Below are positions 2,904 through 55,752 of a stretch of DNA of 64,000 bases, in pieces. Under the pieces are notes generated by a model, which made no database searches, had not been told where the DNA came from, and worked only from the letters and a program-made list of their open reading frames with translations. Each line of letters opens with the position of its first letter. The stretch's first letter is position 1. A program made the position numbers and the translations under genes. The DNA comes from Alphaproteobacteria bacterium UBA6178. GTDB taxonomy: Bacteria; Pseudomonadota; Alphaproteobacteria; Rickettsiales; UBA3002. The stretch spans positions 9,522 through 73,521 of the forward strand of contig DITS01000034.1 of NCBI GenBank assembly GCA_002422205.1, read 5' to 3'.

Positions 2904-4088
2904 ATGTCGTCGTTCGCGTGGGATGATGCGCTACAGCTCACCGGCCAACTCACCGACGAAGAGCGACTGATTGATCAAACCGCCCGCGATTTTGCACGCG
3001 ATGTGCTGCAACCCACCATCCTCGACGCCAACCGGCACGAACGCTTTGATCCTGACCTGCTGCGGGAAATGGGCAAGCTCGGTCTGCTCGGCGCCACGAT
3101 CGACGGCTATGGTTGCTCCGGCGTCAGCCATGTCGCTTATGGCTTAATCGCCCGCGCCGTCGAAGCCGTCGATAGCGGCTATCGCTCCGCCTTATCCGTT
3201 CAATCCAGCCTTGTCATGCACCCCATTCACGCCTTCGCATCCGACGAGCTTAAACAACACTACCTGCCCAAACTCGCCACCGCCGAATGTATCGGATGTT
3301 TCGGGTTAACAGAGCCTGATCACGGCTCCGACCCCGGCGGCATGAAAACCCGCGCCACCAAAGTAGATGGCGGCTATCACCTCACCGGCTCCAAAACATG
3401 GATCACCAATTCCCCCATCGCCGATGTCATGATTATCTGGGCGAAAGTTTATGGCGATAGCGACACGCCCGACGGCACCATCACCGGCTTCATCCTCGAT
3501 CGCGGCACAGGCGTTGAAACCCCAAAGCTCGAAGGTAAATTAGCGCTCAAAGCATCCATCACCGGCATGATCATGCTTGATAACGCCTTCGTACCCGACA
3601 CGCATCGCCTGCATGTCAGCGGCCTTAAAGGCCCCTTCTCCTGCCTCAACAAAGCCCGCTACGGCATTGGTTGGGGCGCACTCGGCGCTGCTGAGGATTG
3701 CTACAAAACCGCCCGTAGCTACGTGTTAGAACGCCAACAATTTAACCGCCCCCTCGCCGCCAATCAGCTCATCCAGAAAAAACTCGCCGATATGCTGACC
3801 GATATCACCCTGGGCCTGCAAGCCTGCCTGCGCGTCGGACGGTTGATCGACGAAAATAACTACCAGCCAGAAATGATTTCCCTCATCAAACGTAACAGCT
3901 GCGGCAAAGCACTCGACATTGCCCGAACCGCCCGCGACATGCTGGGCGGCAACGGCATTTCCGATGAATATCACGTCATGCGTCACATGGTAAATCTCGA
4001 AGCCGTCAACACCTATGAAGGTACCCACGATATTCACGCGCTGATACTGGGCCGCGCCATCACCGGCATCGCTGCTTTTAGCGACTAA
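2904..4088 (+). CDS. gcdH: glutaryl-CoA dehydrogenase (acyl-CoA dehydrogenase family)
   Basis: 394 aa with [32 protein letters not shown] and [14 protein letters not shown], colinear with the GCDH type. Confidence 0.85.
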
Positions 4089-4127
4089 TCCTTGCCTATC
4101 GGGTGAAGCTGCGGCATTATCCGCGCC

Positions 4128-4913
4128 ATGTCGCTCACACCGGATATTATCAGCTTCGCCCACACCCTTGCCGATCAGGCAGGTGCCATCGCGCGCCGTT
4201 ACTATCGGCAACCCTACATGGTTGATTATAAAAGCGATAAAAGCCCCGTCACACTTGCCGATCACGAAATTGAAACCGCATTGCGCGAGGCCATCACCGA
4301 CCGCTTCAGCGACGCTTACGGTATTTTAGGCGAAGAATCAGGTGCAAGCCATCTCGATGCCGAATATGTATGGGTCATCGACCCCATCGACGGCACCCGC
4401 GCCTTCATTGCTGGCAAGCCCACCTTCACCACCCTCATTGCCTTATGCAAAAACGGCGTACCAGTTTTGGGATTAATTGACCAACCCATCATCGGCGACC
4501 GCTGGGTAGGGGTGCAGGGCTTTCCCTCCACCCGCAACGGCCAGCCCGTCACCACTCGCCCCTGTGATGATCTCACATTAGCCCTCATCAGCACCACCTC
4601 GCCGGAATATTTCTCTGCCATTGCGTCACCCTCTTTCCACGCCGTTCGCGCCGCCGCACGTGATATACTCTATGGCTGCGATGGCTACGCCTATGGCCTG
4701 CTCGCCAATGGCGGGGTCGATCTGGTAATCGAATCGGGGTTAAAGCCATACGATTACTGCGCCCTCGCCCCTGTCATCAGCGGAGCAGGCGGCATCATCA
4801 CCGATTGGCGCGGCGAATCACTCACCCTGCATAGCAACGGCGATGTGCTAGCCTGCGGCGACGAAGCGCTGCACGCAATCGCCATTAGCATGATCAAACC
4901 ACCCAAACATTGA
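4128..4913 (+). CDS. inositol-monophosphatase-family phosphatase, possibly HisN-type histidinol-phosphatase
   Basis: 261 aa with the IMPase motifs ILGEESG and WVIDPIDGTRAFIAG. The substrate cannot be decided from sequence alone. Confidence 0.6.
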   Translation: MSLTPDIISFAHTLADQAGAIARRYYRQPYMVDYKSDKSPVTLADHEIETALREAITDRFSDAYGILGEESGASHLDAEYVWVIDPIDGTRAFIAGKPTFTTLIALCKNGVPVLGLIDQPIIGDRWVGVQGFPSTRNGQPVTTRPCDDLTLALISTTSPEYFSAIASPSFHAVRAAARDILYGCDGYAYGLLANGGVDLVIESGLKPYDYCALAPVISGAGGIITDWRGESLTLHSNGDVLACGDEALHAIAISMIKPPKH

Positions 4914-4939
4914 CCAAACGTTCATTCAGGATAAATCGC

Positions 4940-5971
4940 ATGCCGCACAGAGGCTTAGAAAATGCAGTAAAAGATGGCGTCATCAATCAGAGCCAAGCTG
5001 AATTACTCAAAGATTACCTCACCGCCATTTCTGTTCAGGCTGCCATTGCAAACCCCGCGCGTGAAGAAACGGTCGATGCGATACGTGGATTCCACGATGT
5101 CTTTTTATCCATCGGCATCCTGTGTCTGGTAGTAGGAATCTATGCCCTCAACAGCTTCATCGGTTTATTTTTAGGGCCAATACTCATCTGGGGTATGGCC
5201 GAAGCCCTGCGCGGCTGGCACAGCACACGCTTACCCACCATCACACTTGCCTCATGCTTTGCAGGTGCCACAGCTTTTTGCGGCTTAATGCTGGCAGAAA
5301 CGTTAGACATGGCTGAGCCAGCAAAAGATTTTCAGGAAATGATCTGCTCCGCAGGCTTTGCCATAATAGGCACGCTGCTATTTTTAAAACGCTTTAAGAC
5401 CCCATTCGCATGGCTATTATTGGCAGCAAGTATCGTATTATTCATTTATGCACTCCTCGCCTTACAACTCGGCGAAGAAACAATTAAACATTACTGGCAT
5501 GTATTTTTTCTGTGCTGCGGTATCAGCATTTTCATAGCCGCCATGGGGTTCGATTCCCGCGATCCTTTACGCACAAAACCCCATAGCGACATTGCCTTTT
5601 GGCTGCATCTGGGTGCAGCGCCGCTGGTAGTCAATGGCGTCATGAACCTCAATGCCGATTACATCAGCAGCACTGTACCAGCCGCCTTAGTGACTATAGG
5701 GTTGGTGCTTTCACTCGCCTGCTTAGCCCTCATCGTTGACCGTCGGGCAATCTTAGTCTCAGCCCTCATCTATCTGGGCATATCCGTAGCAGACCTGACC
5801 GATTCATTAGCAACCGAACTGGACAGCTCCTTTGCCTTTGCACTCATCATCGTTGGCATGTTTGTTATTCTAGTTGCAAGCAGCTGGCAAACGGCACGTC
5901 AGAAAATCGTTAATCAACTGCCTCTTTGGCTTCATCCATATTTACCGCCTGTAAGGAAAAATCATGCCTGA
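4940..5971 (+). CDS. polytopic membrane protein, unknown function
   Basis: The ORF track gives 4910..5971 with a TTG start. The ATG at 4940 has AGGA 8 nt upstream. The rest of the protein contains multiple hydrophobic helices. Confidence 0.6.
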
Positions 5972-7310
5972 AACTCTACATATCATTGGTTCCGGCCTAG
6001 CCGGCAGCGAAGCCGCATGGCAGGCCGCTCAGCGTGGCGTAAACGTCACCATTCACGAAATGCGCCCCATCGTCAAAACCGACGCACATCACACCGACCA
6101 TTGCGCCGAGCTGGTCTGCTCAAACTCCTTCCGCTCCGACGATGCAGAGCGTTCTGCCATAGGCCTGCTGCACGAAGAAATGCGCCGCTGCGATTCGCTC
6201 ATCATGCGTTGCGCCGAAGCGCATAAAGTCCCCGCAGGTGGCGCACTGGCTGTCGATCGCGATGGTTTCAGCGCCGCCGTAACCGCCATGCTCGAAGCAC
6301 ACCCAAATATCACCTTCCAACGCGAAGAAATTAAAACACTGCCCAAATCCAGCGATGATTTATGGATCGTCGCCACCGGCCCACTCACATCAGCTGCACT
6401 GGCGGATAGTATTTTAAACGAAAGCGGCGAAGAATATTTAGCCTTCTTCGATGCCATCGCCCCCATCATCCACACCGAATCCATCGATATGACCAAAGCA
6501 TGGTTTCAGTCTCGTTATGACAAAGCAGGCCCCGCAGGCACCGGCGCTGATTATATCAACTGCCCCATGAGCGAAGCCCAATACCAAGCCTTCATCGACG
6601 CATTGCTCGAAGGTGGCAAAACCGAATTTAAAGAATGGGAAAAAAACACGCCCTATTTCAATGGCTGCCTGCCCATCGAAGTCATGGCAGAGCGTGGCCG
6701 CGAAACTTTACGCTTTGGCCCCATGAAACCGGTTGGCCTCACCAATCCCCACGCGCCGGAAAAACCATACGCCGTGGTACAGCTACGGCAGGATAACAAA
6801 CTCGGCACGCTTTATAATATGGTAGGCTTCCAAACCAAATTAAAATGGGGCGAGCAAACCCGCATTTTCAAAACCATTCCCGGCTTAGAAAATGCCGAAT
6901 TTGCAAGGCTGGGCGGCATCCACCGCAACACCTTCATCAACAGCCCCCGATTGCTCGATGCACAACTACGCTTAAAGTCTGCACCGCATCTGCGCTTTGC
7001 AGGGCAAGTGACAGGCGTTGAAGGCTATGTCGAAAGCGCCGCCTGCGGCCTGATGGCTGGCATTTTCGCTAGCGCCGAATTGCAGGGCGAGACCATCGTC
7101 ACCCCACCCGCCACCACGGCATTGGGCGCGCTCATGGCGCATATCACTGGCGGAGCCGACGCCAAAACATTCCAGCCAATGAATGTGAATTTCGGCCTAT
7201 TCCCACCGCTAACCCAGCGCATGAAAAAAGCCGATCGCCCACAAGGCTATACCCGCCGCGCCCTGTCCGATCTGGATCATTGGTTACACACGCAATCCCT
7301 AGCCGCGTAA
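5964..7310 (+). CDS. trmFO: methylenetetrahydrofolate--tRNA-(uracil-5-)-methyltransferase
   Basis: 448 aa with the FAD motif [16 protein letters not shown] and colinear with the TrmFO/Gid family. AAGGA lies upstream of the ATG. Confidence 0.9.
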
Positions 7311-8081
7311 CGACATAACCCACAACCGCAGCGGCAGCCATGGCAACCGCGCAGGCAGCGCCGATAGTTGATAATCCCGCTTGATCAGCAGCCCCATATA
7401 ACTTTGCGCCACCTTATCCATCAACCGGATAACCAGCGCGCCCTCAGCGCGGGGCAATAGCTGCACCCGCTCCACCATCGCCATCACATACGCGCGCAAC
7501 CGCTCAGTTTCATCGCCCCGCTCAACCGCCTCGGGCGACAAACCATGTTCCTGCAAGCATGCCAACGGCTGACGAATAACACCATGCTGCAAATGATATG
7601 GCATTGCACGCAACAATCCCGCCATGCCATAGCGCCGCGCGCAATCGCGCACATCGGTATCACTACCGCTCACCAGCGCCATCAACTGATGCAACGGCAC
7701 CACCGTAGCATCCAGATAAGCCAAAAAATCTTCCCATGACTGAATCCCTTGCTTCGATTCCAAATCCATCATCCGCCCCTCAAGCATCCGATCGAATAAA
7801 TCACGCGGCAAATCATGTGCGCCAATTGCAACAGCCAATGCCTGCACCACGATATGATTGCGTGGCGCGCTTCCGGCATATATTTCATCAAGCGCCTCGC
7901 GCCACCATGCCAGCCTGATATGCCCCAGCATCGGCTCGCTTACCTGCTCGGCAATCGGTGCAATCTCGCTGTTAAACGCAACCAACGCCATCAGATCCTC
8001 CTGCATCGTCCGCGGCGCGCACAGGCAACAGATATAACGATCATAATCGCGCTGGCGTATTTGCTGTATTATTGCAGACAT
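7299..8081 (-). CDS. squalene/phytoene-synthase-fold protein lacking the Asp-rich catalytic motifs (NDUFAF6-like)
   Basis: 260 aa with an isoprenoid-synthase-type helical pattern ([15 protein letters not shown]). I see no DxxxD motifs where PSY/HpnD carry them; for example, AMPYHLQHG replaces the second Asp box. Confidence 0.6.
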
Positions 8082-8152
8082 GCTATCCTTTCCATGTCAT
8101 AAAGCCGCATCCATAGCGCTTTTTAGGAGCATTGCAAAGGAGCAAAGCAACC

Positions 8153-9346
8153 ATGTCATGCGTGCATATCATCGGAGCAGGGCTGGCCGGACTGGCCGCC
8201 GCCATTGAGCTATCAGGCACCGACCGGCGCATCTGCCTCTATGAAGCCACCTCACAGGCCGGTGGCCGCTGCCGCTCCTACCACGATCCTGTGCTCAACC
8301 GCGAAATCGACAATGGCAACCACCTCATCCTCAAAGCCAATCACCACACCCGCGACTATATCCAGCGCATCGGCTCCACCGCACAATTCCATACCCCGCA
8401 AACCCATTACCCTTTCATCGATATCAAATATGGCTATCAATGGGAGTTAAAGCGCCCTTTCTACCTACCGCGCTTACCACTTATCGACTATATCCACCTG
8501 CTGCGCATCGGCCTGATGGGCGGCTGCGTCGGTAATTATGCCTCTCCCTACGATAATCTCCATCGCCGCTTCCTCGCGCCGCTTTGCACCTCCATCCTCA
8601 ACACCCCGCCCGAGCAGGCTTCCGCCATGCTCTTCGCTCGCACACTGCGCCAGATCATCGCCGAAAAAGGCGGAGCAGAGCCCCTATTACCGCTTCACAC
8701 ATTACACGCATCGCTAATTGCCCCCGCTCTAAAACGCTTGCTCGATCAGGGCTGCGATATCTATTATCAACAAAGCCTGAAACACATCACCCTTACCGAC
8801 AACCGCGCAACCGAGCTGCATTTCAGCCGCAATGTCATCCCCCTCGGCGCGGATGATATCGTCATTCTCGCCATCCCCGCCCATGGAATCGAAAAATTAC
8901 TTCCCGCCATCCCCGTCCCGCAAACCTATCACGCCATCGTCAACGGACATTTCATCACCGATCATAATCAGCCAAATGGCAGCTTCATCGGTGCCGTCGG
9001 TGGCGCGCTCGACTGGGTCTTTTTCAAAGACGGACTCATATCCACCACCACCAGCGCCGCAAATGCGCTGGCCGATATCGATCAGGATATCACCGCCACC
9101 ATGTTATGGCATGATGTTTGCCGTATTACCGGCGTGCGTAAACCTTTGCCGCCATATCGCATCGTTACCGAAAAACGCGCCACCTATGCCGCCACCCCCG
9201 AAAACCTTAAACGCCGCCCCACCACACAAACCGATTACAATAATGTGCTATTGGCAGGCGACTATGTGCGCAACGGCTTACCCGCCACTATCGAGGGGGC
9301 CATCAAGTCCGGCATGAAGGCTGCCTGTACGGTTTATGCCATCTAA
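8153..9346 (+). CDS. FAD-dependent amine-oxidase-fold oxidoreductase (HpnE-like)
   Basis: Motifs [24 protein letters not shown] and DNGNH. The ATG at 8153 has AAGGAG upstream; the ORF track starts earlier, at 8132. Confidence 0.6.
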
Positions 9347-34386: not shown

Positions 34387-34695
34387 CTATTCACCCTCGT
34401 CAAATTTATTATTCACCAAAAGCTCCAGCGCATCAAGCACTGCGTCTTTCTGCATGCCATCGGCCACTAGCTCCAGCTCCACACCGGGCTCGGCAGCCAG
34501 CATCATCAGCCCCAATATCGAACGCCCCGATACGGTCCAGCCCAACGCCTCATCGGCCAGCGACTCCGGCGGGTTGCCCAGCCGTGTCACCTGCACCTGA
34601 GCATCAAATGCAGAGGTCGTTTTTACAAATTTTGCTGCCGCTCTCGCATGCAGCCCTTTTTTATTCTGAATAGTCACAACCCGCGCCGCTGACAT
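34387..34695 (-). CDS. ptsH: HPr/NPr phosphocarrier protein
   Basis: 102 aa with the active-site His in KKGLHARAAAKF and a regulatory Ser region (GRSILGLMML). Confidence 0.85.
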   Translation of the reverse strand: MSAARVVTIQNKKGLHARAAAKFVKTTSAFDAQVQVTRLGNPPESLADEALGWTVSGRSILGLMMLAAEPGVELELVADGMQKDAVLDALELLVNNKFDEGE

Positions 34696-34696
34696 A

Positions 34697-35101
34697 TTAT
34701 GCGCGTCGTTTTAAAAGATTGCTGGCAACGTTAATGTATTTGCGCCCAGAATCCTGCGCGCTCAGCACCGCCTCTGCCAATGGCAAGGTAGTGCGCACAC
34801 TAATCAGCTTGATCAGCATCGGCAAATTCAGACCCGCAATCACTTCAATCGCACCGCAACCCATCACCGAAATGGCCAGATTCGAAGGGGTGCCACCGAA
34901 CATATCGGTCAATACCACCACCCCCTCACCCTGATCGGCAAGCTTCACTGCCTTGATAATATCTTCACGCCGCACATCGGCTTTATCATCCGCAGCGATA
35001 CAGATGGGGATAAGATGGGGTTGCTTTCCGACAATATGCTCGGCAATGCCGATAAATTCGCGTGCCAGATTCCCATGCGTAACAAGGACTATTCCTAACA
35101 T
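34697..35101 (-). CDS. PTS EIIA, mannose family
   Basis: 134 aa with MLGIVLVTHGNLA (active-site His) and LTDMFGGTP. Confidence 0.8.
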   Translation of the reverse strand: MLGIVLVTHGNLAREFIGIAEHIVGKQPHLIPICIAADDKADVRREDIIKAVKLADQGEGVVVLTDMFGGTPSNLAISVMGCGAIEVIAGLNLPMLIKLISVRTTLPLAEAVLSAQDSGRKYINVASNLLKRRA

Positions 35102-35117
35102 GAGATGTTATCTATGC

Positions 35118-35564
35118 CTAATCCGCCGCGGTTGCAACCCTTGACTGCTTTAGACTTTGAATATGGAATATAATTTGTGCCGCCAATGGCACAGATGTCG
35201 CATCCACGTCCCATTGGGGCAAAAACGCACCGCATAATGGCACCATCACCGGCTCATTGGCACGCTGGGCAATAAAAGGCCGCATCCGGCAATGATACCA
35301 CGCCACCAACGACGTGTGGGCAACCACGGGCACCGGCACCACACCAAAAGGATAAAGCTCCAATTTGCCTTTAATCCCCGATGGGCAGGAAGCAATCAGC
35401 TTGCCATCAGCCGGATCAATCATCACTTGATCATCCGCTACCAACTGCGCACCTAATACCATTAACTGTGTAGCGAGGCTGCTTTTGCCACTCCCCGAAT
35501 CACCCGTAATCAGCACACCAGCCCCGCCAATATCCACACAGCTGGCATGTAACTGATCGCGCAT
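35118..35564 (-). CDS. hprK: HPr kinase/phosphorylase, short form (C-terminal catalytic domain only)
   Basis: 148 aa with the P-loop GDSGSGKSSLA. The length matches the truncated alphaproteobacterial HprK. Its start overlaps the ptsN stop (TAATG). Confidence 0.8.
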   Translation of the reverse strand: MRDQLHASCVDIGGAGVLITGDSGSGKSSLATQLMVLGAQLVADDQVMIDPADGKLIASCPSGIKGKLELYPFGVVPVPVVAHTSLVAWYHCRMRPFIAQRANEPVMVPLCGAFLPQWDVDATSVPLAAQIIFHIQSLKQSRVATAAD

Positions 35565-36016
35565 TAGGTATCTTCCGAGGTAAGCACAGCAAGAATCACA
35601 TTCTTGTCCCCATTTTGGCGCAGCACCCGCTGGTTATCCGGCGAGCGCATCACCCGTGCAATGCGCGACAATGCTTTTAAATGATCGGCATTGGCATCCT
35701 GTGGTGCCAAAAGCACAAACATCAGATCCACCGATTTATTATCCAACGCGTCCATATCAATGGACGAACGCAACCGCACGAAGAAGCCGCAGGCTTTGCC
35801 CAACCCTTCAAAGCGCGCATGCGGAATCGAAATACCATCCCCCACACCGGTAGTACCCAAACGCTCGCGCTCTTGCAACGCATCCATGACCGCACGCTTA
35901 TCAAGCCCCACCGTGGCCGCTGCCACATCGGCAACCACGCGAAAAGCCTGTTTGCTACAGGATACGTCTACATCCAGCAATACCCTGTCCGCTGACAGAA
36001 GGTCTGCTATATCCAT
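35564..36016 (-). CDS. ptsN: PTS-Ntr EIIA
   Basis: 150 aa with GDGISIPHARF (phospho-His). Confidence 0.85.
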   Translation of the reverse strand: MDIADLLSADRVLLDVDVSCSKQAFRVVADVAAATVGLDKRAVMDALQERERLGTTGVGDGISIPHARFEGLGKACGFFVRLRSSIDMDALDNKSVDLMFVLLAPQDANADHLKALSRIARVMRSPDNQRVLRQNGDKNVILAVLTSEDT

Positions 36017-36051: not shown

Positions 36052-36636
36052 TTACGCCGCTTGCTCCTGCGGGTCAACCCAGGAAATGTTACCATCTTCA
36101 CGACGGTAAACAATATTCACACGCCCATGCGCCGAATTGTAGAACATCAAAGCAGGCAAATGTGCCAAATCCATTTTCATCACCGCCTCGCTAACGGTCA
36201 GCGTCTCGATATCGGTCGCCTTCTCGGCGATTACCACCGGCGTGCCGACTTCGTCCAGCTCTTCATTATCCTGCTCGGCAGCCAGTGTATATTTTTTGGC
36301 CTGACCTGCATAAGCCTTAGGCGCATCAATGTTCTTATGGTGATTGGTAAGGCGGCGCTTATAACGGCGCAATTGCTTCTCAATTTTCCCCAGCGCCACA
36401 TCAAATGCTGCATACACGTCATCCGCATCGGCGCGGCTTTTCACCACCACCTGCGAATGGGTACCCGTATTACCATGAATATCCACACGGCATTGGTGCC
36501 CTTCCTTGGTCACCACCACATCCATCAGATTCACACGGTCTATATATTTTGCCACACCTTCTGCCAACCGGCCCTCTACATGGGTTTGAAATGCGCTACC
36601 GAGCTCAATGTGTTTACCGGAAATATTAATTTGCAT
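36052..36636 (-). CDS. hpf: ribosome hibernation promoting factor, long form
   Basis: 194 aa with MQINISGKHIELG at the N-terminus and a C-terminal dimerisation extension. Confidence 0.85.
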   Translation of the reverse strand: MQINISGKHIELGSAFQTHVEGRLAEGVAKYIDRVNLMDVVVTKEGHQCRVDIHGNTGTHSQVVVKSRADADDVYAAFDVALGKIEKQLRRYKRRLTNHHKNIDAPKAYAGQAKKYTLAAEQDNEELDEVGTPVVIAEKATDIETLTVSEAVMKMDLAHLPALMFYNSAHGRVNIVYRREDGNISWVDPQEQAA

Positions 36637-36759
36637 GGTATTCCTCTTGCAGAAATGGGTTATATGCGAAAAGTCATTATGAAAAAACAGGTTAAGGCGT
36701 GATCGCCTATCAATGTTTAATATAGTGCGGTTAAGATAAAAAAGCCACCTTTTTCGGCT

Positions 36760-37992
36760 CTACATCTTGGGAAGCTTGACCCCAAGGCAGCGTGCCAGAC
36801 GGTCTTGCTCGCCATAATAAGCCACACGGCGTAAAAAGCGCGGCATAATACCGGTCCACTGAAAATTCCCTTTCAACCGGCCATCCGCATCCTCACCCGT
36901 AGGCTGGAACACAAACAAATCCTGCATGGTGATTACATCACCCTCCATGCCCACAATTTCCGATACATAGGTCACGCGGCGGTGCCCGTCACGCATCCGG
37001 CTAATCTGAATAATCAAATTGATAGCCGATGAAATCTGCTGCCTGATCGAATTGGTCGGCAAGCCCAAATCGGCCATATTAATCATATTTTCCAAGCGCG
37101 ACAGCGCATCACGCGGATGGTTCGCGTGGATCGTGGTCAGCGAGCCTTCATGGCCCGTATTCATCGCCTGCATCATATCGAAGGCTTCCGAGCCGCGCAC
37201 CTCACCCACAATAATACGGTCAGGCCGCATACGCAGCGCATTTTTCACCAAATCACGAATGGTCACTTCCTCTTCACGGCGCTTATCAAATGTCACCGGT
37301 TTGGTCTCCAGCCGCACCACATGCGGCTGCTGCAGCTTTAATTCCGCCGCATCCTCAATCGTAATCACCCGTTCATCCATATCAATGAACTGCGATACCG
37401 CATTGAGTAACGTCGTTTTACCCGAGCCGGTACCACCGGATATAATCACATTCAGGCGGCATTTACCCAAAATTTTCAAAAACTCCGCCAGCCCTTCCGA
37501 CATATTCCCCTGATCTTTCATTTTATCGAGGGTAATAACCTGCTTGGCAAATTTACGAATCGAAATCGCCGTCCCGTCAACCGCCAATGGCGGCGCAATA
37601 ATATTCACACGGCTACCATCAAGCAAACGTGCATCCACCAAAGGCCGCGACGGATTAAGCCGGCGTCCTACCGCCTTCACAATCTTTTCTGCCACCTGCA
37701 CCACAGATGCATCACTATCAAAGGTAATATCGGTCGGAAACAATTTGCCGCGCCGCTCCACATAAATCTGGCGGTGGCCGTTAATCAGAATATCATTCAC
37801 CTCCTCATCCGCCAGCAAGGGCTGGATAGGGCCAAGATTTTGCAATTCATGCACAAGCTCATCCGTCAGTTTGCTCACATATTCATCTTCTTCCACTTCC
37901 GTTTCACCGCCCAACACATGCTGCACCGTAGCGCTGAGTAATGCAATTTGCTGTTCAAGTGACGCGATTTTTAGTTCCAGGTCTTGCGACAT
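36760..37992 (-). CDS. CpaF/TadA-family secretion ATPase, paralog 1
   Basis: 410 aa with Walker [51 protein letters not shown] and ISIRKF. AGGAG lies before the ATG. Confidence 0.85.
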   Translation of the reverse strand: MSQDLELKIASLEQQIALLSATVQHVLGGETEVEEDEYVSKLTDELVHELQNLGPIQPLLADEEVNDILINGHRQIYVERRGKLFPTDITFDSDASVVQVAEKIVKAVGRRLNPSRPLVDARLLDGSRVNIIAPPLAVDGTAISIRKFAKQVITLDKMKDQGNMSEGLAEFLKILGKCRLNVIISGGTGSGKTTLLNAVSQFIDMDERVITIEDAAELKLQQPHVVRLETKPVTFDKRREEEVTIRDLVKNALRMRPDRIIVGEVRGSEAFDMMQAMNTGHEGSLTTIHANHPRDALSRLENMINMADLGLPTNSIRQQISSAINLIIQISRMRDGHRRVTYVSEIVGMEGDVITMQDLFVFQPTGEDADGRLKGNFQWTGIMPRFLRRVAYYGEQDRLARCLGVKLPKM

Positions 37993-38063
37993 GCGGCTCC
38001 TATAAAATTATGATAGTTGAAAGGAATGTAACAAAGACAGGAATGAATGCAACACAATAGCAA

Positions 38064-39293
38064 TCAGCGCATCGCCTTAAGCAGGCCGCATTGATACATC
38101 ACAGCTGTCAAATCTTTATGGCGCGGCACAATATTGCACCATTCAAAGCGCCCTTGGATTTTGCCGTCCGCATCTTCTCCCGTCGCTTTAAAAACAAACA
38201 AATCCTGCATCGTAATCACATCATGCTCCATCCCGATAATTTCGCTGATATGGGTGATACGACGCGTACCATCTTTAAAGCGGTTGATCTGGATAATCAG
38301 ATTCACCGCCGACGTCATTTGCTGACGAATAAATTTCTGGGTCAGGTTTTGCCCCATCCCAATCATATTTTCCAGTCGCGCCAACGCATCACGCGGGGTA
38401 TTGGCATGTAATGTGGTCATCGAGCCTTCATGGCCCGTATTCATGGCCTGCATCATATCAAACGCTTCCGGCCCGCGCACCTCGCCCACAATAATACGGT
38501 CAGGCCGCATCCGCAGCGCATTAATCACCAAATCCCGAATCGTCACTTCCTCGGCTCTGTCACCCTCTCGTTGCGGGCGCTTAGACTCCAGCCGCACCAC
38601 ATGCGGCTGATACAACCGCAGCTCCGCCGAATCCTCAATCGTAATAATCCGCTCTTTGGGGCTGATAGATTGAGATAGCGCATTCAGCATGGTAGTTTTA
38701 CCAGCACCCGTCCCACCTGAAATCAAAACATTGAGCCGGTATTTTCCGCATGCCTCCAAAAAAGCGCGCATCTCGGGGGTAATCATACCCCTCTCAGCCA
38801 TAGCATCCAGCGCCACCCTACGATCAGGGAATTTACGAATGGAAATAGCCGTGCCATCAATCGCCATCGGCGGCATAATAATATTCACGCGGCTGCCATC
38901 CGGCAATCGCGCATCCACTAACGGGCGGCGATCATCAATCTTACGGCCCAGACTTGCCAAAATACTATGCGCGAGCGCATCCACCTCCTCGATGCTCGAA
39001 AAACGGTAGTCCGAAGGCTCTAATATCCCGTTACGTTCAATATAAATAGTATCGGTTCCGCTGATCAAAATATCATTGATGCTATTGTCTTTAAGCAACT
39101 CGGTAATCGGGCCATAATTAATATCGGCACTGAAGACCGACGCCCTCTCAGGCTCAGCCTCGCGTGCCGCAACATCTAGGGCATTATTATCCCGCATCAT
39201 GGACGCGCCACGCGCCATCACCTGCTCAATTACATGCTTTCCGGTGTGTTTCGCCGTGCCTGACGCCGCTTTAGCCGAAGCATCATCAATCAT
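38064..39293 (-). CDS. CpaF/TadA-family secretion ATPase, paralog 2
   Basis: 409 aa with Walker [51 protein letters not shown] and ISIRKF. Confidence 0.85.
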
Positions 39294-39381: not shown

Positions 39382-40872
39382 CTAACTAATTACACTATTT
39401 TTCAACTTGCGGCGCGCAACCGACGAAGGAATATTGAGCAGCTCCCGATATTTAGCCACCGTCCGGCGGGCAATATCAATATTTTTATCTTTCAATAGAG
39501 TAACAAGGGTATCATCGGATAAAATAGCATCCGCCGATTCATTATCAATCAGCTGCTTGATAAAATACATCACGGTTTTACTCGATATATCCTCTGAACC
39601 AGACGAAGAGCCCACCGAAGAGGTAAAGAAATATTTTAACTCAAAAATCCCGCGCGGCGTCGCCATAAACTTATTGGTCGTCACACGGCTCACCGTGCTT
39701 TCATGCAAATCAACCTGCAAGGCAATGTCTTTTAATGTTAAAGGCTTCAAAAACTGAATGCCATAGAGCAAAAAATTCTCCTGCTGTTTCACCAGTTCCG
39801 TGCTCACCTTCAAAATCGTCTGCGCACGCTGATCCAGTGCCTTCACCAGCCAATTCGCCTGTGATAGCTGTTCCGATAAATATTTTTTTTCCGCCTTATC
39901 GCGGGTTTTCGTATCTAGCTCCTGAAAATAATGTTGATCGAGCAATACGCGCGGCAATGCGTCATGATTCAGTTCAATCTGCCACTGCCCGCCCTTGCCG
40001 CCGCGCACAAACACATCCGGTATCACCGGCTGCGCCAGATCATGAATAAACTCCCGCGCCGGATAAGGGTTCAGCGTGCGGATTTGTTTCAGCATATCAT
40101 GAAAATCCTCGGCACTGGCCCCACACCTCGCCTGCAATCCCTGCAAATCGCCTTTTTCCATCAAATGAATATGCTCGATCATGCTTTGCATCATCGGGTC
40201 AAACCAGTCCCGCTCCTTAAGCTGAATGCTCAAGCACTCCTTTAAATTCCGTGCAAAAATGCCGCTAGGGTCAAATTGCTGTAACCTTGCAATCGTTGCT
40301 TCAATCAATGCCGCATCGGCTCCCAACTGCTCAGCAAGCGCTGATGTCTCCTCACGTAAATACCCGCCCTCGTCCAGCAAATCGAGCAGTTGCACTGCCA
40401 CCAACCGCATTTTCGGCTCTTCAATATCCACCTGCAACTGGCTCAGCAAATGCTCTCTAAGCGTTACATCTGACGATAACGTCTGCTCCAGCGAGGCCTG
40501 CTCACCATCATAGCCCGAGGCGTGCGGGCTGCGCTCATGCCGGTCAACGCTCACCCGCGATGAGCTATAATCACTGCCTTCTTCATTGCTCTGCCAGCCA
40601 TCGCCATAATTGCTGTCGAGCTCCGTGTCCGAGCTGTTATTATCCACCCTGTCCGCATCGGCAGGGCTGGCAAAGGATTCGGTCATTTCAGGCTGTGGCT
40701 CCGGCGGGGCAGTCTCTTCTGCCGCAAGCAACGGATTGCGCTCGATTTCTTCCTCGACAAATGCCGACAGCTCCAATGCCGATAATTGCAACAGCTTAAT
40801 AGACTGCTGCAATTGCTGCGTCATCACGAGCGACTGACCCTGCCGTAATTCAAGCCTTTGCGATGGTTTCAT
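39382..40872 (-). CDS. rpoN: RNA polymerase sigma-54 factor
   Basis: 496 aa with region I (LELRQGQSLVMTQQLQQSIKLLQL), an acidic linker and a C-terminal RpoN box (ARRTVAKYR). Confidence 0.95.
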   Translation of the reverse strand: MKPSQRLELRQGQSLVMTQQLQQSIKLLQLSALELSAFVEEEIERNPLLAAEETAPPEPQPEMTESFASPADADRVDNNSSDTELDSNYGDGWQSNEEGSDYSSSRVSVDRHERSPHASGYDGEQASLEQTLSSDVTLREHLLSQLQVDIEEPKMRLVAVQLLDLLDEGGYLREETSALAEQLGADAALIEATIARLQQFDPSGIFARNLKECLSIQLKERDWFDPMMQSMIEHIHLMEKGDLQGLQARCGASAEDFHDMLKQIRTLNPYPAREFIHDLAQPVIPDVFVRGGKGGQWQIELNHDALPRVLLDQHYFQELDTKTRDKAEKKYLSEQLSQANWLVKALDQRAQTILKVSTELVKQQENFLLYGIQFLKPLTLKDIALQVDLHESTVSRVTTNKFMATPRGIFELKYFFTSSVGSSSGSEDISSKTVMYFIKQLIDNESADAILSDDTLVTLLKDKNIDIARRTVAKYRELLNIPSSVARRKLKNSVIS

Positions 40873-40920: not shown

Positions 40921-41751
40921 TTAAACGCTAAAGCTTTCACCCAAATACACGCGGCGCACCTCGCGGTTATTCACAATCTCCGCAGGCGTGCCTTCCATTA
41001 GCACGGTACCATCATGAATAATATAGCTACGGTCAATAATATCGAGCGTCTCGCGCACATTATGGTCGGTAATCAATACCCCAATGCCACGATCTTTTAA
41101 ATGCGACACCAAATCACGCACCTCGCCAATCGCAATCGGGTCAATCCCTGCCAGCGGCTCATCGAGCAGAATAAACGAGGGCCGACTAGCCAGCGCCCGC
41201 GCAATTTCCACCCGCCGACGCTCGCCACCTGATAAGGCAATCGCTGGCGACAACCGTAAATGCGTAATCGAAAATTCGGCCAATAATTCATCCAGCAATA
41301 ATTGTCGGCGTTGTGGCTCCGACTCGCAGACCTCCAGCACCGCCATAATATTCTGCTCCACCGTCATCCCCCGAAAGATCGAGGCTTCCTGTGGTAAATA
41401 CCCAATGCCTAGCCGCGCCCGCCGATACATCGGCAACGCCGTAATATCCGTACCATCCAAACTAATGGTCCCATAATCGGGCTGCACCAAACCGGTAATC
41501 ATATAAAAACAGGTGGTTTTCCCTGCGCCGTTTGGCCCCAAAAGCCCCACCGCTTCCCCACGGTTCAGCTTCAGACTGACATTGCGCACCACGGGCCGCT
41601 TGGCATATTGTTTGCCAATATTGGCAATGCTCAGGCCCGATTGCGTCTCGATTAATGTCGGCATATCACCTTTTTGTGGCTGCAACTCAATCGGCGGCTT
41701 CTGACGAAGGTCGCGTCTATGGCTAGGCTGCGCCCATGGCCACCAGCTCAT
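40921..41751 (-). CDS. lptB: LPS export ABC transporter ATP-binding protein
   Basis: Motifs GLLGPNGAGKTT, LSGGERRR and ILLDEP. The start is uncertain: the ATG at 41751 has AAGGA upstream, and an alternative ATG lies at 41664. Confidence 0.85.
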   Translation of the reverse strand: MSWWPWAQPSHRRDLRQKPPIELQPQKGDMPTLIETQSGLSIANIGKQYAKRPVVRNVSLKLNRGEAVGLLGPNGAGKTTCFYMITGLVQPDYGTISLDGTDITALPMYRRARLGIGYLPQEASIFRGMTVEQNIMAVLEVCESEPQRRQLLLDELLAEFSITHLRLSPAIALSGGERRRVEIARALASRPSFILLDEPLAGIDPIAIGEVRDLVSHLKDRGIGVLITDHNVRETLDIIDRSYIIHDGTVLMEGTPAEIVNNREVRRVYLGESFSV

Positions 41752-41752
41752 A

Positions 41753-42286
41753 CTAATTTCCTTCTTTTTTGGGAACAAACAGCCCTCTCACGCGGCCACT
41801 CCCCGTTGTGGTGCCATCCGTAGACAACGCCGAACCCGACAAAACGCTTTTACCGGATTTGAGATTATAGGTGAGTTGCGTCCCTTTGAGAATGTTTTTC
41901 TCCCGCGTCAGCACCACATCGCCTTGCATATTAATCTGCTCGCGTCCCACATCATACACCGCGCGCTCACCACGCGCCGTTTCATCAGGGCTGGCAAAAA
42001 ACACCCCACCATCCGCTTCAATGCTCGATATACCTTGCGCCACGCTCCCCGCGCCCGCCGATTCATTCCCACCTTTATAATGCACAATCATCCGTGCGGA
42101 TTTCATATTGATATTACCCTGCACCGCCTGCACATTACCCACAAAAATCGCTTTCTGCTCCTGCTGATACACTTCCAGCGTATCCGCTGTAATCTCAATC
42201 GGCTGGTCGCTATCGGCCTGCAGGCTTTGCGCCCACACCGGCGACGCCACCGCCCATATCATCACCATCAAAACACTCAGCCGCAT
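41753..42286 (-). CDS. lptA: LPS transport periplasmic protein LptA (OstA-like)
   Basis: Signal peptide MRLSVLMVMIWAVASPVWA followed by OstA-type beta-jellyroll repeats. The position between lptC and lptB fits. Confidence 0.8.
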   Translation of the reverse strand: MRLSVLMVMIWAVASPVWAQSLQADSDQPIEITADTLEVYQQEQKAIFVGNVQAVQGNINMKSARMIVHYKGGNESAGAGSVAQGISSIEADGGVFFASPDETARGERAVYDVGREQINMQGDVVLTREKNILKGTQLTYNLKSGKSVLSGSALSTDGTTTGSGRVRGLFVPKKEGN

Positions 42287-42287
42287 A

Positions 42288-42947
42288 TTATCCCCCCACA
42301 TTCACAATCAACTTCACCCCGCCGGTAAAGCGCAGCACTTTTTCATTATTCTGCCAGTCAAACGCCTGCGCATGGATTTGCCCCATCGGTCCCTGCCCGT
42401 TAATCGGCTGCATGCCGCTGGCCACGCGCCTGCTCATATCAATATCGATCGACTCGGTCACAAACTCATATCCCTGATCATGAAACAACGTCACATTACC
42501 ATTCAGCGTCATAAATTTTTTCTCGGTCTCCAGTTTGCCCTGCTTCGACGTCATCGAAAGCCAGGTGCCTTCATGCGTAAAAATATCGGCTTGCACATTT
42601 GCCAGCACAATGGTTTTTTCATCTTCCTGCATCGCCGAATCCGCCGTCACCGTATAAGGCTGGTTATTATCATCCACCCCCTGAAAACGCGGATTGGTCA
42701 TTACTGGTAGCGCGTCACTTCTATCGCCCAGCGTCGTAAAGGCAATCCGCAATCCCGCATTATCCGCCTCCAGCGCCGGAATCACAATAATGGTCAGCAT
42801 CAATATCAGCGACACCACACCCAGCCCGATTTTGCTAAACGCCACAAAACGCGTATACCGCCCGATCGACGAAAGTAGTTTGCTGGTATCACGGTTAATC
42901 CAGCGCGAATGATGCTTGCCGGTAATCGGCTTATGGATCGTCGCCAT
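42288..42947 (-). CDS. lptC: LPS export system protein LptC
   Basis: 219 aa with a single N-terminal TM helix. The position between kpsF and lptA fits. Confidence 0.7.
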   Translation of the reverse strand: MATIHKPITGKHHSRWINRDTSKLLSSIGRYTRFVAFSKIGLGVVSLILMLTIIVIPALEADNAGLRIAFTTLGDRSDALPVMTNPRFQGVDDNNQPYTVTADSAMQEDEKTIVLANVQADIFTHEGTWLSMTSKQGKLETEKKFMTLNGNVTLFHDQGYEFVTESIDIDMSRRVASGMQPINGQGPMGQIHAQAFDWQNNEKVLRFTGGVKLIVNVGG

Positions 42948-43925
42948 TTACATCACCCCCGCACGCAGGCAATCATGGATATGTAAAATTCCGATAGGAT
43001 GATTCGCCTCATCGACAACAAACAAACAAGTAATCGATTTCTGGTTCATGATACCCAGCGCTTCCGCTGCCAGATGGTGAGGCCGTATTGTCACCGGATG
43101 CGCATTCATCACCGCACTCGCCTGCTTTTTCAGCAACCCGTCCCCCATGTGCCGGCGCAAATCCCCGTCGGTAATCACTCCCTGCAATACCTTGTCGGCC
43201 ACCACGCCTAAACACCCGAATCGCTTGGCTGTCATTTCGATGAGCGCTTGCTCCATTATCATATCACTTGCCACGAGTGGCAGCTCCTGCGTGCCATGCA
43301 TCAGATTCTCCACACGCAAAAAAGCCTTGCCCAGTTTGCCCCCCGGATGAAACACATTAAAATCCTCTGGTGTAAAACCTTTGCGTTCCAGCAGCGCCAT
43401 CGCCAGCGCATCGCCATAAGCCAGCATCATCACCGTCGAGGTGGTCGGCGCGCCGGTAGGCGACGCTTCAGGCACTTCCGGCAATATAATCGCATGATCT
43501 GCCGATTCCACCAATGTAGAGCTGCTCCTACGTACCAGCGCAATCAATGGAATACTGAAACGTCGAGTATAGGCAATCATATCCTGCAACTCGGCAGTCT
43601 CACCCGAATTCGACAACAGCATCACCGCATCATCTGTGGTAATCATCCCCAGATCGCCATGGCTGGCCTCCGCAGGGTGCACAAACTGCGCCGGTGTACC
43701 CGTCGATGCCAAAGTCGCCACAATCTTGCGCGCAATATGCCCGCTTTTACCCATCCCACTGACAATCAGACGGCCTTTCAGCTGCGCCACGCATTCCACT
43801 ACCGCCACAAAGCCCGCATCCAACGCGCCAGATAACGCTTCAAGACCCGCAATCTCCTGCGCAATAACCGCTTGTGCGCAACGGATATCCTTCTCAGCCT
43901 GCGATATATTAGATTGGCGTAACAT
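42948..43925 (-). CDS. kpsF: arabinose-5-phosphate isomerase (KpsF/GutQ; SIS + CBS pair)
   Basis: 325 aa with GMGKSGHIARKIVATLASTG, SNSGET and C-terminal tandem CBS domains. Confidence 0.85.
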   Translation of the reverse strand: MLRQSNISQAEKDIRCAQAVIAQEIAGLEALSGALDAGFVAVVECVAQLKGRLIVSGMGKSGHIARKIVATLASTGTPAQFVHPAEASHGDLGMITTDDAVMLLSNSGETAELQDMIAYTRRFSIPLIALVRRSSSTLVESADHAIILPEVPEASPTGAPTTSTVMMLAYGDALAMALLERKGFTPEDFNVFHPGGKLGKAFLRVENLMHGTQELPLVASDMIMEQALIEMTAKRFGCLGVVADKVLQGVITDGDLRRHMGDGLLKKQASAVMNAHPVTIRPHHLAAEALGIMNQKSITCLFVVDEANHPIGILHIHDCLRAGVM

Positions 43926-54137: not shown

Positions 54138-54343
54138 AGTCCTGCTCCTTATATCCAAATGAAATGCAATAGTCGGTTATAGATGGAAAAGTGTCGGGAG
54201 CAAGCGATTTTTACATGAATAATCCAAGCTTTTTCATAGCAATGACAGCCCAGCGCGCCCACCCCGCCGCATTTCATGCTGCATTGCGAGACAACTTCCT
54301 GAGAATTAAATGAATTGTTAATAGTTTGTGCTATACTTTAATC

Positions 54344-55075
54344 ATGACCACACAAGCATTGCTGACCCAACATTATTATGGCCTGTGCGAACGCACCTCC
54401 GATGCTTTTCTCTCCGAGCCGCTCAACGCTATTTCCAATCTATCCTTCATCCTCGTCGCCATCATGATTTACCGCACCTACCGCGACCATCAGGATCTCA
54501 AAGGCAAATGGATATGGGATTTACACATCCTCACAATCCTGATTTTCAGCATCGGGCTTTTTAGTTTTATCTATCACATCTACCCCACCCCCTACACCGA
54601 AACCATGGATGTGATTCCCATCGTTGCCTTTATCAATATCTTTTTCTTCAGCATCATCGTACGCATCGGACATACCAATGCATTTCAGACCGTTGTGTGT
54701 TTTCTGGCCTTTGTCGGTAGCACCCATATATTAGTCAGCCAGTTTCCAAACGCCATGAACGACTCCATCGGCTACCTCTCCAGCATGGTGGCGCTTGTCG
54801 TCATCGCCATTTACCTGCACATGATGCGCCGCCCGTCCTCACACCAATTCTTGCTCGCGTCGCTCATCGGGGTGATTTCGCTCTTTTTCCGCGCCATCGA
54901 TAACGCCGTATGCGACACTATACCCATCGGCACGCATTTTCTCTGGCATTCACTCAATGCGCTGCTACTGTACATCCTCATGAAACAGGTCATCCGCAAT
55001 GTTAACCGCGATGCGCGCTTGCGCCGCATGGCGATGATGAAAGCAACAGGACGGCATAAATGGTCGATGAAATAA
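54344..55075 (+). CDS. ceramidase-family 7-TM protein, copy 1
   Basis: N-terminal YYGLCERTSDAFLSEPLNAISNLSFIL, seven hydrophobic helices and a C-terminal HFLWHSLNA. Confidence 0.6.
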   Translation: MTTQALLTQHYYGLCERTSDAFLSEPLNAISNLSFILVAIMIYRTYRDHQDLKGKWIWDLHILTILIFSIGLFSFIYHIYPTPYTETMDVIPIVAFINIFFFSIIVRIGHTNAFQTVVCFLAFVGSTHILVSQFPNAMNDSIGYLSSMVALVVIAIYLHMMRRPSSHQFLLASLIGVISLFFRAIDNAVCDTIPIGTHFLWHSLNALLLYILMKQVIRNVNRDARLRRMAMMKATGRHKWSMK

Positions 55076-55752
55076 ACACCGCATCCACTCTTACCTATCT
55101 TGACGCCTATTGCGAACGCTCGGGCGATGCATCTTTTTGGGGTGAACCCTTGAACGCCATCACTAATCTGGCCTTCATTTTATGCGCCCTCATGGCCTAT
55201 CGCCTGATTAAATCAATACCTGACAAGCGCTTTAAAAGCATGGGCGACATCTGGACATTGATCTTCTGCATGTTCGCAATCGGCATTGGCAGTGGCCTGT
55301 GGCATACGCATACTCGCCCATGGACGGTCATTGCCGATATTATCCCTATCTATATTTTCATTAACGTTACCATTTTCAGCCTCACCATGCGGCTATTGCA
55401 ATTCAGTTGGTGGCAAGCGCTCGTCATCTGGCTTGGCTTTATCATGCTCACCATCGCATTCGAAACCGGCGCCCCGCGCGATCTGCTCAATGGCTCCGTC
55501 ATGTATCTGCCCACCTATTTAATGCTGGGCTTTATTATCGCCTTGCTATCCCTCAAAAAGCATTACAAAGCCTGGCGCGACCTCACCGCTATATTGCTGG
55601 TCTTCACCGCCTCATTGTTTTTCCGCACCATCGATATGGAAGTTTGCGCGCAAATTCCTACGGGCACCCACTTCCTGTGGCACATGCTCAACGCTTGGGT
55701 ACTCTATAGCATCGTGAAATTAATAGCCGACAGCAAACGGGCTATTGTCTAA
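55060..55752 (+). CDS. ceramidase-family 7-TM protein, copy 2
   Basis: DAYCERSGDASFWGEPLNAITNLAFIL, LWHTH and THFLWHMLNA. It overlaps copy 1 by 16 nt. Confidence 0.6.
   Translation: MVDEINTASTLTYLDAYCERSGDASFWGEPLNAITNLAFILCALMAYRLIKSIPDKRFKSMGDIWTLIFCMFAIGIGSGLWHTHTRPWTVIADIIPIYIFINVTIFSLTMRLLQFSWWQALVIWLGFIMLTIAFETGAPRDLLNGSVMYLPTYLMLGFIIALLSLKKHYKAWRDLTAILLVFTASLFFRTIDMEVCAQIPTGTHFLWHMLNAWVLYSIVKLIADSKRAIV

Follow-up and report, generated by a model that had tools for sequence, protein, structure and literature searches.

Tandem CpaF-family ATPase genes between rpoN and hpf in uncultured Alphaproteobacteria, and the replacement of their predicted platform-contact loop

The stretch of DNA described here (the 'window', 64,000 nucleotides in full) spans positions 9,522 to 73,521 of the forward strand of contig DITS01000034.1, from assembly GCA_002422205.1 of Alphaproteobacteria bacterium UBA6178, and carries two tandem genes for secretion-type ATPases of the CpaF/TadA family between the genes for sigma-54 (rpoN) and for the long form of hibernation-promoting factor (HPF; hpf). 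These genes, termed B (the rpoN-proximal copy) and A (the hpf-proximal copy), belong by sequence comparison to a distinct subfamily that has kept its catalytic machinery, that usually lies next to hpf and not within a tad pilus locus, and in which pore-loop residues predicted to grip the TadB/C platform have been replaced. Between 34.4 and 43.9 kb every gene is carried by the minus strand, in the order kpsF, lptC, lptA, lptB, rpoN, B, A, hpf, ptsN, hprK, EIIA-Man and NPr, followed by acs, divK and pleD, with spacers of 88 nt between rpoN and B, 71 nt between B and A, and 123 nt between A and hpf. An initial annotation, made from the letters of the window, had assigned both ATPase genes these coordinates, this strand and these spacers, which match the sequence, and had named their flanking genes (kpsF-lpt-rpoN on one side and hpf-ptsN on the other), the identities of which are borne out by domain searches. 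The genes of the locus are as follows.

38064..39293, minus strand: ATPase B, rpoN-proximal copy, 409 aa (PF00437, E 8e-60)
36760..37992, minus strand: ATPase A, hpf-proximal copy, 410 aa (PF00437, E 2e-62)
39382..40872, minus strand: rpoN (sigma-54), directly upstream of B (Sigma54_AID, Sigma54_CBD, Sigma54_DBD)
36052..36636, minus strand: hpf, long form, directly downstream of A (PF02482 and PF16321)
40921..43925, minus strand: kpsF-lptC-lptA-lptB, upstream of rpoN (SIS/CBS, LptC, LptD_N, ABC_tran)
34387..36016, minus strand: part of the string encoding the nitrogen-related phosphotransferase system (PTS-Ntr), made up of the next four genes
35564-36016, minus strand: ptsN (Pfam)
35118-35564, minus strand: short hprK (Pfam)
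34697-35101, minus strand: EIIA-Man (Pfam)
34387-34695, minus strand: NPr (Pfam)

The assignment of both products to the CpaF/TadA type, first proposed from a set of motifs that are indeed present in the translations of both genes, is upheld by their PF00437 matches and by sequence and structure comparisons in which CpaF is the closest family. The best NCBIfam model for each protein was TIGR03819 (TadA-family conjugal-transfer-associated ATPase; E 2e-93), at 313.0 bits for A and 313.6 bits for B, below the curated cut-off of 373, and scores then fell in order through VirB11 (A 240 and B 227 bits, cut-off 250), TrbB (A 216 and B 198, cut-off 305), FlaI, PilT, PilB and GspE, the PilB/PilT/GspE models returning 47-63 bits against cut-offs of 319-676 (pilT_fam E 1e-16; PilB E 2e-14). 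No virB or trb gene was found by Pfam among the large open reading frames (ORFs) of the window. A phmmer search of the PDB with A led to the CpaF of Caulobacter crescentus (8rkd/9e24) at E 3e-125, and over 348 core columns A is 53% and B 48% identical to that protein. Homologues of A in the protein collection, at 66-89% identity, all come from metagenomes or from metagenome-assembled genomes (MAGs) named 'Rickettsiales bacterium' or 'Alphaproteobacteria bacterium', and are labelled as CpaF family or 'pilus assembly protein CpaF'; many A-type proteins also carry a weak or faint precomputed match to PF27713 (UCP018868).

Judged by their sequences, A and B are true paralogues and complete CpaF-type ATPases without decay. 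The proteins share 64% of 334 aligned residues (E 7e-155), in agreement with the initial estimate that well over half of the core residues are shared; their N-termini, comprising the first 51 and 58 residues of the pair, do not align, so that the description of these regions as unrelated holds and their supposed length of about 100 residues does not. At the DNA level the genes are 65% identical (48% at third codon positions), their longest common run is 26 nt, and no gene-conversion tract was found by nucleotide comparison, from which it follows that the duplication is old. This level of identity does not support an earlier impression of high nucleotide similarity, and the likeness of two antisense shadow ORFs on which that impression drew has no extra meaning. 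Gene conversion between the copies was considered and rejected on the same third-position identity and the lack of a tract. The GC content and the GC content at third codon positions (GC3) of A and B equal those of rpoN, hpf, lptB, ptsN and acs, and both genes are therefore compositionally native. The B copy has evolved faster: its orthologues (P0122-P0135), whose genes share contigs with those of the nearest A-type proteins, are 59-73% identical to it, as against 73-89% for those of A.

The catalytic residues of both proteins could be compared with those of C. crescentus CpaF, the numbering of which is used here and the residue roles of which are taken from PMC12019362. In the cryo-electron microscopy structures of that enzyme, K287 and T288 belong to Walker A, E312 to the Asp box and E357 to Walker B, while R217, R223 and R347 are arginine fingers that act in trans and D215 has also been assigned a role (PMC12019362). 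The Walker A motifs of the two window proteins, located by translation and alignment, are these.

37411..37437, minus strand: Walker A of A, GGTGSGKTT, residues 186-194
38691..38717, minus strand: Walker A of B, GGTGAGKTT, residues 193-201

K287, T288, E312, E357, R217, R223, R347, D215 and G284 proved to be invariant in every group that was aligned (64 tad-linked, 172 A-type and 14 B-type proteins, and the P0162-type), A and B included. Because the residues for ATP binding, for hydrolysis and for the trans-acting fingers have all been kept, A and B should form active hexamers, and both are predicted to be active hexameric ATPases. The invariance of all nine residues in the B-type proteins likewise argues that B is not a pseudo-ATPase; the initial view that neither copy is decaying is sustained in this respect, and the loss of catalytic residues from one copy, which had been raised as a possible sign of a pseudo-enzyme, is refuted by their retention in B.

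Structure prediction with AlphaFold2 gave a model of A (67 sequences) with a predicted local distance difference test score (pLDDT) of 79.5 and a predicted template modelling score (pTM) of 0.72, in which the N-terminal domain (NTD) and the ATPase domain are well predicted and are preceded by helices at residues 3-27, 33-51 and 54-61, with pLDDT values of 46-54 over residues 21-50. The closest structures found by Foldseek with this model were those of CpaF (8rjf, 8rkd and 9e24, E 1e-49 to 5e-46), followed by FlaI, archaeal GspE and VirB11 at 1e-38 or worse. The model of B (pLDDT 78) is likewise confident for the NTD and the ATPase domain; its residues 1-53 fall below 50 and contain a single low-confidence helix, and a pore-loop segment at residues 227-240 is also below 50. 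The N-terminus of B, a member of the upstream-copy lineage, is of low complexity, and those of its orthologues run to 40-195 residues and are rich in Pro, Ala, Glu and Gln. Seven of the latter (P0125, P0126, P0128, P0130, P0131, P0134 and P0135) share an MF(A/S)x(K/R)K start, followed by disordered N-termini that are unrelated to one another; the motif is absent from B of the window. The possibility that the long B-type N-termini are degenerate cyclic nucleotide monophosphate (cNMP)-binding domains was rejected, since they are of low complexity and bear no match to the cNMP domain found in the fusion proteins described below. They resemble the intrinsically disordered N-terminus of alphaproteobacterial class II CpaF, truncation of which in the C. 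crescentus protein cuts pilus activity and does not lower ATPase activity (PMC12019362).

The surface through which CpaF is predicted to engage its membrane platform departs from this picture of conservation. In a published AlphaFold3 model, CpaF contacts the T2SSF domains of CpaG/CpaH (TadB/C) by way of helix alpha5, loop 8 and the pore loop, the conserved contact residues being G204, R205, R206 and D208 in loop 8 and E331 and G334 in the pore loop (PMC12019362). The corresponding pore loops of A and B were delimited by alignment with 64 CpaFs from tad contexts.

37264..37302, minus strand: extended pore loop of A, KPVTFDKRREEEV, residues 231-243
38544..38582, minus strand: extended pore loop of B, non-canonical, residues 238-250

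The pore loop of A is two residues longer than that of tad-linked CpaF and is without the E-G-x-G tip. Extension by two residues and variability are general in the subfamily, as is apparent from sequences such as KPVTFDKRREEE and, in further members, KPVSFDRGVRNEE, KPITSGISQREE and QPLKVGGDPNEE; E331 (64 of 64 tad-context CpaFs) and G334 (63 of 64) are both found in none of its members. In loop 8, R206 has become K, R or S and D208 has become N, D or H, so that four contact positions (R206, D208, E331 and G334) which are conserved in 63-64 of the 64 tad-context proteins have lost their fixed identity. When all sites were considered, eight of the 108 whose conservation in tad-linked CpaF reaches 95% or more were found to fall below 60% in the A-type (sites 133, 147, 152, 188, 206, 208, 331 and 332); of these, four map to the surface predicted to contact the platform (odds ratio 11.5, one-sided Fisher p=0.005). 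Sites newly conserved in the subfamily include W472, R479 and Y486/Y487 in the C-terminal tail. Mean pairwise identity is 70% in the subfamily and 59% in the tad set, and since the subfamily is the more conserved overall, the variable pore loop does not reflect general decay; a changed partner is favoured, because it is the pore loop predicted to contact TadB/C that has been replaced. On the evidence of these alignments, the pore-loop residues predicted to grip TadB/C are replaced throughout the subfamily.

The separateness of the subfamily is also evident in its phylogeny. In a neighbour-joining tree of 273 sequences (355 core columns), all 191 members of the rpoN/hpf-linked group fall into one clade, which excludes the 64 tad-context CpaFs, 14 CpaFs whose surroundings differ or are too short, and the CpaF of C. 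crescentus itself. Bootstrap analysis of a 132-taxon subsample (84 replicates) recovered the whole clade 83 times, the A-type 71 times, the group containing B of the window 83 times and the P0162 group 84 times. The phylogeny that the initial annotation had called for thus places both copies within a clade related to CpaF and separate from the tad CpaFs, and, so far as sequence can say, this is a distinct monophyletic CpaF subfamily. A grouping that unites all upstream copies was recovered in 23 of the 84 replicates, and for this reason the copies may go back either to one ancient duplication with later losses or to duplications that occurred several times independently.

The genomic context of the subfamily was then compared among ten independent lineages of uncultured Alphaproteobacteria, with the following arrangements.

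Window (L009/L010): rpoN-B-A-hpf
L007/L008 (A 89% and B 73% identical): rpoN-B-A-hpf
L006 (MAG STL-PRO43): two ATPases between rpoN and hpf
L093/L094: ATPases of 498 and 420 aa between rpoN and hpf
L001/L002: single ATPase between rpoN and hpf, its start overlapping the end of rpoN by 11 nt
L003-L005 (TARA): single ATPase between rpoN and hpf
L091/L092: single ATPase with an N-terminal cNMP-binding domain (cNMP_binding E 7e-15) between rpoN and hpf
L095/L096: rpoN, a STAS-like gene on the opposite strand, ATPase, hpf
L011: prfC, further on an ATPase, a type IV prepilin-like gene on the opposite strand, hpf
L099: ATPase pair between rpoZ and greA (4545-7257), divergent copy first; the same on 7 contigs

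An ATPase gene lies directly upstream of hpf in nine of the ten lineages and downstream of rpoN in eight. In five lineages there is a pair, whose divergent member is upstream every time; four others have one ATPase gene, and the remaining one has a single cNMP-binding fusion, such cNMP_binding+T2SSE fusions (for example P0098) occupying the same slot between rpoN and hpf. Within the matches listed, hpf is present in every locus whose ATPase is at least 68% identical to A and in no locus at 62% or below, the latter being mostly canonical cpaA-cpaB-cpaC-cpaD-cpaE-cpaF-tadB-tadC-tadD loci. When the window was compared with L001, L003 and L006, identities were 81-84% for LptB, 70-75% for the A-type ATPase, 59-65% for Hpf, 51-58% for RpoN, 38-51% for PtsN and 31-37% for HprK; within the cluster, only LptB is thus more strongly constrained than the ATPase. 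The divergent copy also comes first in the pair that L099 has at its other site, which favours an old two-gene unit. That pair stands where most Alphaproteobacteria have rpoZ followed by spoT/rsh, and its position beside the genes for RNA polymerase omega and GreA, once more neighbours from the transcription machinery, is suggestive, as a single case. Two further features of these loci were recorded: a rapZ-like gene between hprK and EIIA-Man in some lineages (L091:13390-14265 and L093:14525-15373), absent from the window (34697-35564), L001 and L003; and, in the ATPase-hpf spacer of one other (L095:11219-11382), short repeats of the GACTAGT/GCCACTAGCCAC type that form an imperfect palindrome.

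These comparisons establish the arrangement as an ancient, vertically inherited feature of the clade. The initial annotation had treated the ATPase genes as inserted between rpoN and hpf, which is correct on a deep evolutionary scale and not as a local event, the arrangement being common to many lineages; nor are the genes a peculiarity of the window genome, given their clade-wide linkage to hpf and a GC and GC3 content equal to that of their neighbours. The single-ATPase locus of L001 belongs to MAG UWPOB_ALPHA2 (GCA_017302575.1), a single contig of 1.86 Mb (98.9% complete, 50.8% GC) classified by GTDB as o__UBA998; f__UBA3002 (PMC8103865). UBA3002, UBA998 and SXRF01 have been described as basal, free-living, flagellated families of Rickettsiales (preprint, bioRxiv 10.1101/2023.01.31.526412).

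The partners with which a CpaF protein would ordinarily be encoded were sought systematically. The comparison set consisted of 79 loci among the matches listed in a metagenome scan, the ORFs of which were clustered and which served as an outgroup sample; 64 of these lower-identity loci display the order cpaA-cpaB-cpaC-(cpaD)-cpaE-cpaF-tadB-tadC-tadD, and one member of each tad family was checked by Pfam (T2SSF, Secretin, RcpC, Peptidase_A24, TadE, Pilus_CpaD, TPR and Tad). Hidden Markov models (HMMs) built from the 64 canonical loci for TadB/C, CpaE/TadZ, CpaC, CpaB, CpaA, TadE, TadD, CpaD and TadG were run against all ORFs of at least 70 aa in the window and in L001-L011, and returned nothing beyond a cross-match of the CpaE receiver domain to PleD/DivK and a marginal TadE match (E 0.0017) in L011. 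Pfam analysis of the large ORFs of the window recovered housekeeping functions only, with no tad or pilus gene, and the window contains no Flp or type IV prepilin leader motif, L011 being the sole positive among the clade loci. The initial observation that no pilus partner lies within the 64 kb is thereby confirmed by Pfam, tad HMMs and prepilin motifs, and it can be extended to the absence of tad or type IV pilus machine genes within about 10 kb in the ten lineages.

The remaining contents of the window lie outside this question. They include two tandem genes for ceramidase-like (PF05875) membrane proteins at 54326-55752 on the plus strand, with weak to moderate matches (E 3e-9 and 3e-6), and a 353-aa ORF at 4910-5971 on the plus strand, between genes of the inositol monophosphatase and GIDA (trmFO/gidA-type) families, for which no Pfam match at E <= 1e-5 was found. 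An Rfam search of all 64 kb gave no family at gathering score, tRNA included.

Taken together, these findings suggest a mechanism in which an ancient pair of CpaF-family ring ATPases, inherited vertically in free-living, basal Rickettsiales-like Alphaproteobacteria and fixed beside hpf, would no longer drive a canonical Tad platform and would instead act on a different partner. The working form might be a homo-hexamer of A, a mixed ring of A and B, or two rings with opposed roles. Its expression would be joined to that of the sigma-54/HPF/PTS-Ntr nutrient-stress module, as is inferred from the single strand, from the spacers (across lineages -11 to 136 nt between rpoN and the first ATPase, 10-75 nt between copies and 39-192 nt between ATPase and hpf, or -11 to 192 nt overall) and from the overlap with rpoN in one lineage. 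Its ATPase activity may be gated by a signal, a suggestion prompted by the cNMP fusion in one lineage and by the fast-evolving, disordered N-terminus of the upstream copies. The whole of this reading (a homo- or hetero-hexameric ATPase under signal control that works, within a sigma-54/HPF/PTS-Ntr unit, on some partner that is not canonical TadB/C) is held with about even confidence. Of its parts, co-transcription of the ATPases with rpoN is plausible from the layout, and read-through from A into hpf appears uncertain.

Several points weigh against this reading. The first concern expression: co-transcription is proposed from spacing, and two signals, each of them a consensus match only, lie within the string.

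36741..36761, minus strand: terminator-like hairpin and T-run overlapping the stop of A
38007..38034, minus strand: sigma-70-like promoter, TTGTTA-16-CATAAT, in the B-A spacer

A comparable GGTGGCTTTTTTAT stands after the L007 orthologue. The tree was built by the neighbour-joining method only, and the yardstick for the interface is an AlphaFold3 prediction and not an experimental structure. Within that interface G204 and R205 of loop 8 are invariant in the subfamily and the pore loop keeps a conserved acidic base, which may leave some contact of the platform type in place. The A protein is still 53-57% identical to a genuine pilus motor, and we know of no non-pilus function for any protein of the CpaF family. 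Finally, L011 encodes between its ATPase and hpf (3633-4559, minus strand) a protein of 308 aa whose leader is that of a classical type IV prepilin (NGFTLIEMAIVLVIIGLIVAG), and type IV motility pili have been ascribed to the basal families named above (bioRxiv 10.1101/2023.01.31.526412).

The strongest alternative, considered a serious possibility at somewhat less than an even chance, is that A and B power extension, retraction or both in a Tad or other type IV filament machine whose genes for platform, pilin, peptidase and secretin are located at another site in the genome. On this view the ATPase genes would simply have moved into the rpoN operon, and their pore loop would have co-evolved with a divergent platform. 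This account gains from the closeness of A to C. crescentus CpaF in sequence (E 3e-125) and in structure, from the intact catalytic core together with G204 and R205, from the frequent control of surface appendages by sigma-54, and from the fact that pilus assembly is the only known role of the family (PMC12019362, PMC11300603). Two paralogous motors would parallel PilB and PilT, and the pili reported in basal Rickettsiales families and the prepilin-like gene beside the ATPase of L011 also speak for it. The family of that prepilin is large and scattered, with 2406 matches, several copies per contig and members in 'Rickettsiales bacterium' MAGs; no pilus machine genes were found beside it in the two contexts inspected (L097 and L098), which comprise a mobile-element/restriction island and a housekeeping/flagellar region. 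Against a displaced pilus motor stand the lack of tad or pilus machine genes around the ATPases, both in the window and near the loci of the other lineages, and the loss of the E331/G334 tip in a loop that is variable, which suggests relaxed and not co-evolving constraint. Moreover, no canonical CpaF in the sample is detached from tadB/tadC with alternative synteny of such long standing. Four loci (L043, L044, L063 and L085, ATPase at about 7500-9080, contigs up to 1.2 Mb) contain a different kind of detached CpaF, canonical in type, 53-54% identical to A and with the EGxG loop kept, that lies without tad neighbours beside a gene for an EamA-family transporter.

A more far-reaching version of the changed-partner reading, in which a CpaF-derived ring ATPase, ancestrally a unit of two paralogues and detached from Tad, has been recruited to a cytoplasmic, signal-gated role in a nutrient-stress module joining RNA polymerase accessory factors (sigma-54, and omega and GreA in one lineage), HPF-dependent ribosome hibernation and PTS-Ntr, and would represent the first non-filament function of CpaF, is put forward with reserve, as appreciably less than even in probability. 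The initial annotation had offered two readings, a motor for a distant machine and a non-pilus role; both remain live, and the sequence data lean towards a changed partner.

Chance synteny is considered unlikely. It would hold that an ordinary cpaF has been carried along in a conserved gene order of small genomes without any functional link to rpoN, hpf or PTS-Ntr, a proposal that draws on the terminator-like hairpin between A and hpf in the window, on the one lineage with its pair elsewhere (rpoZ-greA), and on the outcome of a search of the rpoN-ATPase, B-A and A-hpf spacers of the lineages, none of which holds a sigma-54 -24/-12 promoter. Adjacency to hpf has nevertheless survived divergence of RpoN to about 50% identity, the ATPase of L001 overlaps rpoN, and even the alternative site at rpoZ-greA again lies beside genes associated with RNA polymerase. 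Least credible of all, and very improbable, is a recent acquisition or tandem duplication with B as a decaying copy or pseudo-enzyme, for although the orthologues of B are the less conserved (59-73% against 73-89% for A) and B has no confidently folded N-terminal helical bundle, the copies share just 48% of third positions with no conversion tract, match their neighbours in GC and GC3, occur as a pair in the same order in at least five lineages, and include in B a protein whose orthologues form their own clade (83/84) with catalytic residues intact and invariant across 14 sequences.

The significance of the locus depends upon which account holds. A new partner, if real, would widen the functional range of PilT/VirB11-like ATPases and would add an unknown player to the sigma-54/hibernation/PTS-Ntr stress module, while a relocated motor would tie surface appendages to nutrient signalling through unusual regulation in free-living relatives of the Rickettsiales. 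Such relatives are used to reconstruct the origin of intracellular life. In either case the label 'pilus assembly protein CpaF' probably causes metabolic reconstructions to score these genomes as piliated on weak grounds.

Comparison with known systems places the subfamily nearest to CpaF/TadA, as exemplified by the C. crescentus protein (PDB 8rkd, 8rjf and 9e24), with which it shares the PF00437 core, identical Walker A, Asp box, Walker B and His-box regions, the three arginine fingers and D215, and the fold of the NTD and C-terminal ATPase domain. Where CpaF has its three-helix bundle, the model of A shows N-terminal helices, in part of low confidence. The two differ in that the subfamily reads ALRMRPDRI where C. 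crescentus CpaF reads CLRMRPERI, and that a second subfamily motif stands opposite FDLLQAMNTGHDGS of that protein. CpaF/TadA is, to our knowledge, viewed as a motor reserved for pili, its gene invariably accompanied by those of its platform, whereas in the loci examined members of the subfamily are never beside tadB/tadC, cpaE, cpaC or flp, lie instead beside hpf or rpoN, occur in tandem pairs or with a fused cNMP-binding domain, and possess a conserved C-terminal tail.

The joint encoding of two paralogous PilT/VirB11-like ring ATPases recalls PilB and PilT (or PilU) of type IVa pili, and the paired arrangement could similarly provide opposed or cooperative activities; in this case, however, the sequences are distant, and no PilC, PilM-Q or pilin operon is nearby. 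The fused form of L091 resembles, in its logic, the ATPases of the MshE/PilB type, which bear N-terminal sensor domains for a second messenger (cyclic di-GMP) and are gated through MshEN, in that an ATPase in the same slot carries an N-terminal sensor domain for a nucleotide second messenger; it differs in that the ligand is cNMP and not cyclic di-GMP and the sensor fold is another, and A and B of the window have no sensor domain.

With respect to its surroundings, the locus corresponds to the canonical lptCAB-rpoN-hpf-ptsN-(rapZ)-npr cluster, the standard members of which are present on one strand, and departs from it in the one or two ATPases wedged between rpoN and hpf. A survey of sigma-54 gene contexts lists yhbJ, lptABC, kdsCD, PTS-Ntr and yhbH/hpf as conserved neighbours, and no secretion-type ATPase (PMC3162934). 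The initial annotation had allowed that the gene order might prove to be widespread and already characterised in relatives; it is widespread, and no publication was found that characterises it, neither that survey (PMC3162934) nor the full-text literature searched describing a secretion-type ATPase in the rpoN-hpf slot or a cNMP-fused CpaF. What these comparisons define is a clearly CpaF-derived motor in a new and conserved genomic, and probably functional, setting.

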